Assembly: GCA_031701365.1 (NCBI GenBank)
Contig: GCA_031701365.1_4118.1
DNA from: Escherichia coli
GTDB taxonomy: Bacteria > Pseudomonadota > Gammaproteobacteria > Enterobacterales > Enterobacteriaceae
DNA: 64,000 bases
Strand: one strand, 5' to 3'
Position 1 is the first letter of the stretch, and each line of letters starts with the position of its first letter. Below, in pieces: positions 35,973 to 36,038 of this stretch. The notes beneath the pieces are model-generated. The model had not been told where the DNA came from, made no database searches, and saw only the letters and a list, made by a program, of their open reading frames with translations. A program made the position numbers and the translations under genes.

Positions 35973-36038
35973 AAAAAAGTCAAGGCGTTTTTAAAATTAT
36001 GCGTTAAAAAAATGCATAGGTAATCCCTTGACTTTTTT
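35973..36038. repeat. long inverted repeat at early-region / family B boundary
   Basis: 13-bp arms AAAAAAGTCAAGG / CCTTGACTTTTTT separated by ~40 bp. Confidence 0.6.

Follow-up and report, generated by a model that had tools for sequence, protein, structure and literature searches.

The window (the whole stretch of 64,000 nucleotides analysed here) shares 98.5% identity with Escherichia phage 121Q and 90-96% with other jumbo phages of Asteriusvirus, and comes from an Asteriusvirus (121Q/PBECO4-like) jumbo phage. Several deposited Asteriusvirus genomes carry direct terminal repeats (DTRs) of about 20 kb. The corresponding DTR of the window extends from 15904 to 36096 on the + strand (about 20.2 kb) and holds about 50 small + strand genes and sigma-70-type promoters, with 10 perfect matches to TTGACA-16/17-TATAAT on its + strand. 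It is present as a single copy, bordered on one side by unique sequence of the right genome end and on the other by that of the left genome end, which is the configuration of a collapsed assembly or of a concatemer junction.

The last gene of the DTR (35735-35944, + strand, 69 aa) matched phrog_17833 with an E-value of 2.7e-37 and is probably in one operon with ORF 35232-35666; this pair of genes at the end of the DTR, of about 400 and 207 nt, is syntenic in Kae01, Eneladusvirus and Hallingskeid. The gap that follows (35945-36193) contains, in order, a TAGTACTGA block, an inverted repeat, the GATTGGACTATG box, 35 nt, the cut CCT^TAGC (the caret marks the cut), a promoter-like site, GGGAG and the ATG at 36194. 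The block on the left of the repeat, CTAGTACTGATTCAG (35958-35972, + strand), adjoins the left arm, and its TAGTACTGA sequence was invariant in all six Asteriusvirus sequences aligned, including the divergent JNE01 and Turkey5. The GATTGGACTATG box (36050-36061, + strand) is present in a single copy in the window and belongs to the conserved terminus core described below. The last 35 nt of the DTR, together with the cut, occupy 36062-36101 (...GGGTAACCT^TAGCG), the cut being located between 36096 and 36097. The promoter-like site TTGACT-16-TATTAT (36136-36163, + strand) is found 40 nt outside the DTR and 98 nt past the repeat, where it is positioned to serve the first gene of a paralogous small-gene array (36194-36391, + strand, phrog_4148, or family B), for which we prefer the ATG at 36194, located after GGGAG, over the ATG at 36164. 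The ORFs tiling positions 33000 to 39000 co-linearly are all on the + strand, as are the genes annotated here in related records, and the ORFs of the - strand are short and overlapping; promoter-like matches on the - strand nearby have a weak consensus only.

The palindrome AGTACT, whose last copy in the DTR is located in the block next to the left arm (35960), is present in 253 copies in the 64 kb, an estimated 10 times or so the expectation for the base composition. Its copies are spread over coding DNA, non-coding repeats (ATGATTCAGTACTGA) and the spacers of promoters (..CAGTACTGTATAAT), and none is located in the small-gene array that adjoins the DTR edge on its right side, the copy-free intervals being 35966-40400 and 42635-50205. 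The palindrome may serve as a target for regulation or modification.

Comparison of the physical ends of nine DTR-bearing records showed that eight of them (vB_Ec-M-J, CRJP21, E9.1, BF17, fEgEco12, G17, WPEC5 and WPEC3) share the same last base, ...GGGCGGGTAACCT or ...GGGTAACCT, which is position 36096 of the window, 58 nt beyond the right arm of the repeat and 152 nt beyond the stop codon of ORF 35735-35944. The DTR annotated in vB_Ec-M-J (1..21525) stops in the same intergenic gap as the repeat. The record of ELP-22 (BAU.Micro_ELP-22) stops elsewhere, 24 nt past the stop codon of the last DTR gene, and its terminus is probably assembly-defined and not physical. BLAST of the starts of the vB_Ec-M-J and CRJP21 records (AGTAGGCAGAGG...) placed the left edge at 15904, which, with the eight record ends at 36096, delimits the DTR. 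The termini of fEgEco12 were set by PhageTerm and restriction digests (PMC13070987), and those of G17 from coverage (PMC6563267), while coverage and PFGE gave the termini of CBB (PMC5259590); the authors of the fEgEco12 study doubt the DTR annotated for UE-S1 (PMC13070987). The first-pass annotation had placed the repeat at a boundary between an early region and the family B array. The repeat does mark a boundary, but the identity of this boundary had been missed: it is the right end of the DTR of about 20 kb, with the end of the genome a short distance downstream. Since the mapping of the terminus places the right edge of the DTR just beyond the repeat, the early region of that annotation is the DTR itself, and its family B array, made of phrog_4148 paralogues, is the first unique segment.

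The inverted repeat itself was confirmed as it had been described. The left arm, AAAAAAGTCAAGG (35973-35985, + strand), consists of an A-run and GTCAAGG and is complementary at 13 of 13 positions to the right arm, CCTTGACTTTTTT (36026-36038, + strand), which contains TTGACTTTT and ends in a T-run that is a candidate U-tract. The arms are separated by an AT-rich spacer of 40 nt, in which the string quoted earlier, ATGCGTTAAAAAAATGCAT, is located at 35999-36017. An inner hairpin is nested in this spacer on the + strand, where 35997-36005 pairs with 36011-36019 in a 9-bp stem (TTATGCGTT / AAAAA / AATGCATAG), two pairs of which are G.U. AATCCCTT (36022) is also able to pair with AAGGGATT (36046), in competition with the 13-bp stem.

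Two perfect inverted repeats of at least 13 nt with a spacer of 3-60 nt are present in the 64-kb window, and first-order Markov simulations gave a mean of 0.14 such repeats, with at least one in 13% of the simulations; the repeat by itself is thus only mildly improbable. The exact TTGACTTTT sequence is present in three copies in the 64 kb, two of them in the arms of the repeat and one in the 36136 promoter-like site, all within 170 bp of the repeat; the copy at 35975 is inverted while those at 36028 and 36136 are direct. Other short repetitions surround the repeat and the cut, namely four motifs of the AAAGGG type (AAAGGGAT at 35950 and at 36045, AAAGGGCG at 36082 and AAAGGGGT at 36110) and AATGCGTA, found at both 35943 and 36066.

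The minimum free energy of the RNA over 104 nt around the repeat was -29.2 kcal/mol, with z-scores of -5.2 to -6.5 against shuffled sequences. This stretch ranked fourth among the 746 scanning windows covering 15.9-42 kb, the three above it being those of the non-coding left end of the DTR, and RNAfold returned one interrupted hairpin of 54 nt at -15.9 kcal/mol. The hairpin begins 29 nt past the stop codon of the + strand ORF 35735-35944, just downstream of this gene and co-oriented with it. On the + strand a U-rich tract follows the stem, CCTTGAC being succeeded by TTTTTTGA, and TTTT(C/T)T is kept after TT(G/A)AC in most lineages.

The explanation that we favour for these observations, with a confidence that falls somewhat short of even, is that a + strand RNA hairpin and its U-tract would end or pause transcription of the last DTR operon before the signal of the terminus. 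The inverted repeat would form the outer stem of a nested hairpin in the + strand RNA, at the 3' end of the operon made of ORFs 35232-35666 and 35735-35944, with a closing stem GUCAAGG/CCUUGAC and then, directly, UUUUUU. Because these six U residues directly follow the closing stem, the RNA polymerase of the host, on its rightward passage across the early (host-takeover-like) DTR genes, would be stopped or paused there, some 60 nt short of the DNA-end signal and of the small-gene array with its separate promoter. We infer that the structure functions as RNA and that transcription is terminated or paused by it. Our search of the literature on Asteriusvirus and its relatives for transcript-end data found none.

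Several properties of the structure differ from those of a standard terminator. It is not a compact stem-loop, as the 13-bp arms (7 bp without the A.U run) enclose 40 nt, and a consensus terminator scan of positions 33000-39000 did not report the repeat, because of this 40-nt interior. A discriminant of the d'Aubenton-Carafa type was negative for the repeat (d = -10.7) and gave +36.3 and +27.0 for canonical terminators of the DTR at 31468 and 22446, respectively; the negative value arises because the hairpin energy per nucleotide is low. The proposal that the repeat is a terminator insulating two transcriptional programmes is plausible on the + strand, with a stop codon 29 nt before it, a T6 tract, the array having its own downstream promoter at 36136, and the G.U asymmetry reported below, although the scan did not call the repeat and its discriminant is negative. 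The same poor terminator score leaves room for an RNA hairpin that does not terminate and would be an RNase III processing site or a stabiliser of the 3' end of the last DTR transcript. The evidence for a + strand RNA applies equally to such a role, and the interrupted helix of about 19-22 bp with internal loops has a shape comparable to that of the irregular intergenic hairpins of the T7 early mRNA. We consider this role unlikely, as the DTR genes appear to be individually promoted, so that processing of a polycistronic RNA is not obviously needed, and a conserved U-rich tract after the stem would be superfluous for it.

Other hairpins of the DTR have A/T flanks and embed TTGACT, for example AAAGGGATTGACTCCGGTCAGTCCCTTT at 30092 and 32685, and hairpins based on this hexamer are thus a habit of this genome. 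Composite elements in which AAAGGGATTGACTCCGGTCAGTCCCTTT is followed by GCTATTATAT were found at 30092-30119, 32685-32712 and 26049-26076, with a variant near 34622. They contain a 12-bp hairpin whose left arm is the TTGACT -35 hexamer, with a TATTAT -10 hexamer about 17 nt downstream, so that terminator and promoter would overlap in these elements. Two identical canonical terminators (AGCCCACCTTAAACAGTGGGCT and a T-run) were also observed at 22445-22466 and 23180-23201, 735 nt apart, and their sequences point to a local duplication inside the DTR.

The A-run on one side and the T-run on the other had suggested a bidirectional terminator to the first-pass annotation. This symmetry is real, and the location at the inner end of a long DTR of early genes recalls the first-step-transfer region of T5, so that a T5-style injection stop at the inner edge of the left-hand terminal repeat may be considered along with termination in both directions. 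We regard either of these as highly improbable. Bidirectionality finds no support since no - strand gene faces the site: the tiling ORFs and the genes annotated in relatives are all on the + strand, and the promoter-like matches of the - strand are weak. In the virion DNA, moreover, the same element is found at the far right end too.

Two candidates unrelated to hairpin formation were rejected. A sigma-70 promoter using the TTGACT at 36028 on the + strand has no -10 hexamer at 16-18 nt (ATTGGA), GACTAT being 20-21 nt away, and on the - strand the -10 hexamer would be TAGATC or TAAATC, in which the final T is missing; our promoter scan reported no site using TTGACT 36028 or its reverse complement at 35975-35983. 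A small conserved - strand ORF, annotated in SD-15, E9.1 and Kaldavass, has no counterpart of at least 40 aa in the window, and the alignment shows indels of 1-3 nt.

We then compared the gap with those of other jumbo phages by BLAST searches that started with the corresponding gap of Klebsiella phage fENko-Kae01 (DTR 1..19736, PhageTerm) and were extended onward. The same module was found in the Salmonella phages Munch and 7t3, in Eneladusvirus (Serratia BF, the Erwinia pEa_SNUABM phages and Yersinia fHe-Yen9-03/04), in the Mimasvirus-like phages CBB, XbC2 and Kaldavass, and in Hallingskeid. Loose pattern scans of viral and metagenome collections gave mostly chance matches and left five useful metagenomic sequences after filtering. 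Between genera, just about 100 nt of non-coding DNA aligns, at about 80% identity, and the flanking genes are unalignable at the DNA level. The aligned part runs from AAAATGnnTAgG to TT(G/A)ACTTTT(C/T)T, CTATG and (C/G)CT^TAGC. The right arm, TT(G/A)ACTTTT(C/T)T, is kept in place in Kae01, Eneladusvirus, the Mimasvirus-like and Hallingskeid-like phages and the metagenomic relatives, and the right arm, the CTATG box and the cut site are together conserved in at least five genus-level groups, while conservation of the left arm is partial: its A-run and GT(C/T)AA are kept positionally in most lineages and are lost in JNE01 and Turkey5. The distance from CTATG to the cut is 35 nt in all lineages but Serratia BF (34 nt), and the DTR ends at the homologous (C/G)CT^TAGC base in Kae01 (PhageTerm), in CBB, and in Hallingskeid and Kaldavass (record ends). 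Because independent genome ends and a fixed CTATG spacing coincide across genera, the right arm is part of a deeply conserved terminus module. Conservation of the arms in relatives, which had been put forward as a check of the repeat, therefore holds for the right arm across genera and less so for the left arm, and the repeat as a whole is lost in JNE01 and Turkey5.

A role of the hairpin alone leaves the cross-genus sequence conservation of the right arm and of the spacer unexplained, and the main rival explanation is a packaging or terminus signal at the DNA level, in which the terminase, or else an accessory protein, would bind the TTGACTTTT copies and the CTATG box and thereby position the cut at 36096/36097. 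In this view the DNA could bend at the AT-rich spacer of 40 bp, or the palindrome itself would be a stop or recognition structure. It takes up, in a more specific form, the earlier suggestion of a recombination or protein-binding site. We hold it to be possible but doubtful. In eight records the mature DNA end is 58 bp away from the repeat, all three exact TTGACTTTT copies of the 64 kb flank the cut, the stretch from the right arm to the cut retains about 80% identity across genera between genes that cannot be aligned as DNA, the spacing of 35 nt from CTATG to the cut is fixed, and Eneladusvirus and the Mimasvirus-like phages have direct as well as inverted copies of the motif, the direct ones being unexplained by pairing. 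Such a signal is the best explanation of the sequence conservation, of the clustering of TTGACTTTT around the cut and of the fixed box-to-cut spacing. However, the spacing of the arms varies, from 40-42 nt (TTGAC-type arms of the window, EcMJ and XbC2) to roughly 39 nt in Hallingskeid and 23 nt in Kae01, and is not helically phased, so that a rigid dimeric binder is hard to fit. In JNE01 and Turkey5 the terminus core is retained although both the repeat and the proximal TTGACTTTT are missing. U.G pairs are tolerated while C.A pairs are not, which, with a + strand structure more stable than that of the - strand, points to single-stranded + sense nucleic acid and not to recognition of a duplex. 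A hairpin ending the last operon and a packaging signal are not mutually exclusive, and we treat the terminus module of about 100 bp as an adjacent, overlapping DNA signal beside the RNA hairpin.

RNA structure prediction, also proposed earlier as a check, gave a nested hairpin with an extreme z-score in the window but no consensus fold across 14 lineages. A single conserved RNA fold is accordingly not supported by RNAalifold, which predicted no consensus pairs on the 14-sequence alignment. A nested hairpin was nevertheless predicted at the same place in each of the lineages outside Asteriusvirus, with z-scores of -2.0 to -6.0. The other genera pair the conserved right-hand blocks with differing left-hand partners, so that the stems are in differing registers, and the stem of minimum free energy has no adjoining U-tract in several of these genera. 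The helices are ACTCATTTTT/AAAAATGAGT and AAGTCAG/TTGACTT in Kae01, a 13-nt helix AATATCTTATACA/TGTATAAGGTATT containing the CTATACA-type CTTATACA/TGTATAAG in Eneladusvirus, and AGTCAA/TTGACT, TATCCC/GGGATA and ATTCAA/TTGAGT in Hallingskeid; in L191 the segments ACGCAGA/TCTGCGT, read from its sequence, are paired in its fold.

When the two helices of the window were imposed on the 14-sequence alignment, 64.6% of the cells were paired, against 34-49% when the partner was slid by 1-3 columns, a control biased by the fact that the imposed structure was derived from one of the aligned sequences. The observed values were reached by 6 of 500 shuffles for the percentage of pairing and by 15 of 500 for the covariation score. 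The arms thus show a partial conservation with covariation of the wobble type: arm position 45-94 is C-G in four sequences, U.G in six and U-A in three, with one unpaired case. A test for contiguous helices against shuffled upstream sequence was significant (p<0.05) in four sequences representing three lineages (the window and EcMJ, pEa47, and XbC2) and borderline in Kae01 (p=0.058), the other five sequences being not significant. The fold of the + strand was more stable than that of the - strand in 12 of 16 sequences, and 13 of 16 differences were negative after control for composition; G.U pairs numbered 2-7 on the + strand and 0-4 on the - strand. The Hallingskeid-like contig L180 has two differences in its left arms (AGTCAA to AGTTAA and TATCCC to TATCTC), both of which give a G.U pair on the + strand, and both helices are kept in its fold. 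The evidence for conservation of pairing is mixed but positive overall. The wobble pairs and the strand asymmetry favour a structure in + sense single-stranded nucleic acid, most simply a transcript, and argue against a symmetrically recognised duplex or a cruciform.

The extreme folding z-score, the clustering of TTGACTTTT and the pairing of the arms above slid controls in other genera indicate together that the repeat is more than a chance occurrence. A further view is that the repeat has no present function and is the relic of an inverted duplication of a promoter fragment carrying a -35 hexamer and a T-run. Its supporting observations are that TTGACTTTT doubles as the -35 hexamer of the 36136 promoter, that the left arm and its upstream flank, read on the - strand from the sequences, resemble the 16237 promoter (TTGACTTTATGATTCAGTACTGTATAAT) with a broken -10 hexamer, that the repeat alone has a chance expectation of 13%, and that substitutions within Asteriusvirus, counted by eye, are about 1/26 in the arms and about 12/152 in the whole intergenic region, proportions that are not clearly different. 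We judge a relic to be quite unlikely, as pairing is kept across genera above the controls with covariation at one arm position, and hairpins recur at this place in other genera in addition to the extreme z-score of the window.

Within Asteriusvirus, the arms are intact in the clades of 121Q, SD-15, CMSTMSU and vB_Ec-M-J, among which the outer T-run changes from TTTTTT to TTTTAT and the inner hairpin is partly decayed; in the vB_Ec-M-J clade it is the left half of the inner hairpin that has decayed. The arms of WPEC3 have one A.C mismatch. JNE01 and Turkey5, the most divergent members, have an unrelated AT-rich sequence in place of the repeat, and both retain the TAGTACTGA block, the GGGATTGGACTATG box, GGGTAACCT^TAGC and the 36136 promoter-like site, which shows that the terminus core can exist without the repeat. 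In the clade of these two phages a near-copy of the terminus sequence, ACCTTAGCGT, is located about 20 nt upstream of the GGGATTGGACTATG box, and at positions 1490-1600 of Turkey5 the 3' part of the last DTR gene and the AT-rich replacement segment are duplicated in tandem, over 88 nt.

The promoter of the array is deleted in Salmonella phages of the SD-15 type while the repeat is intact. In SD-15, SD-6, SD-2 and SD-1 the match to the window stops 12-19 nt past the DTR edge. The deletion in SD-15 (SD-15_S21), estimated at about 79 nt, is located between two AAGGG repeats, is equivalent to positions 36113-36190 or so of the window, and fuses GATAAAAGG to TCCTATGCGT, the start of the first array gene, with loss of the array promoter. 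The sequences of these phages suggest that read-through may be needed in them, as the array promoter is gone and the repeat is not; this, like the loss of the repeat in JNE01 and Turkey5, weighs against the terminator reading.

Comparison with the intrinsic terminators of E. coli and its phages shows the same order of a hairpin and then a U-run after a stop codon and before the next promoter, and the A-run and U-run flanks resemble those of bidirectional terminators. However, the closing stem encloses 40 nt here instead of the usual 3-8, the discriminant is negative, there is no convergent transcription, and the sequence of the right arm is conserved between genera, unlike that of ordinary terminators. 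A conserved non-coding module adjoining the cut that makes the mature end is found in the cos site of lambda (cosQ-cosN-cosB), and this site and other packaging sites share with the terminus module short motifs in both orientations, an AT-rich spacer and a fixed distance from box to cut. In lambda cosB, oppositely oriented gpNu1 sites surround an IHF bend. Unlike those of lambda, the ends considered here bound a 20-kb direct repeat and are not cohesive, no binding protein is known for them, and the wobble pairs and strand asymmetry point to RNA or single strands and not to recognition of a duplex.

A transcription stop or pause element beside the boundary of a terminal repeat is also found in T7, a DTR phage, in which a class II pause and termination signal for RNA polymerase at the concatemer junction is needed for the processing of concatemers. 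The T7 case suggests a possible coupling of transcription arrest with the formation of ends. T7 differs in that it uses its own polymerase and a short sequence signal with no hairpin, while the host enzyme would be involved here, and coupling in the present case is pure conjecture. The host-takeover modules of SPO1 and T5 are similar in that a long DTR is filled with small early genes, each with strong host-type promoters, that are all read inward from the left end; this likeness concerns the context and not the repeat itself. The repeats at the inner edge of the T5 terminal repeat are linked to its injection stop, and we know of no equivalent conserved hairpin at the inner DTR edge of SPO1.

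A broader reading, about which we are as hesitant as about a packaging signal at the DNA level, is that the repeat and the 100 bp or so on its right would constitute a cis-acting signal for the right end in the whole Rak2-like group of jumbo phages, here taken as Asteriusvirus, Eneladusvirus, Mimasvirus and the Kae01-like and Hallingskeid-like phages. This signal would consist of a hairpin-forming zone, TTGACTTTT, the CTATG box and, exactly 35 nt beyond it, a cut that precedes TAGC, and the hairpin or the arrested transcript would help the packaging machinery to locate the right end of the 20-kb repeat. If this is true, it would be the first defined end-formation signal for jumbo phages with long DTRs, and it would possibly couple transcription arrest to cutting as in T7; if the repeat is just an odd terminator, it is ordinary biology. 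The definition and duplication of ends in phages with very long DTRs (20 kb here) are poorly understood. The long DTRs of these phages are already published, and terminator-like hairpins and packaging signals are known kinds of elements. The literature on the terminal repeats of this group that we consulted in a limited search (PMC13070987, PMC6563267, PMC5259590) gives the lengths of the repeats and does not describe the hairpin, the terminus module or an end-formation signal. The main value of the analysis is the base-precise terminus motif, common to several genera, to which the repeat led. A terminus of the form ...CTATG-N35-^TAGC beside a recurrent hairpin in at least five genus-level groups offers a target for mutagenesis, terminase binding and Term-seq, and with the motif the real ends of the genome can be located in many deposited assemblies of jumbo phages in which the record has an arbitrary start.

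The sequences of the left DTR terminus, when compared between genera, were not conserved, which leaves no symmetric signal at both ends of the DTR. A search of the whole window against Rfam 15 gave nothing at gathering thresholds, the best match at 35920-36056 being bglG-cis-reg with 28.4 bits for a threshold of 80, and a search for tRNA and tmRNA genes found none. In the first 1.7 kb or so of the DTR (15904-17700), in which no gene is annotated in relatives, Rfam and tRNA searches were likewise without match. This segment contains the most structured RNA-fold region of the 26 kb scanned (16394-17057, z-scores of -6.4 to -7.4) and the only other perfect 13-nt inverted repeat of the window (16481-16493 and 16544-16556), and it may hold non-coding RNAs, an origin or a packaging region. 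A small hairpin is located right at the left DNA end of the DTR (15904-15924, AGTA GGCAGA GGAAG TCTGCC), and the left end of the Kae01 DTR (1-24) is likewise a hairpin, TATCTTCT CTGTATA AGAAGATA.
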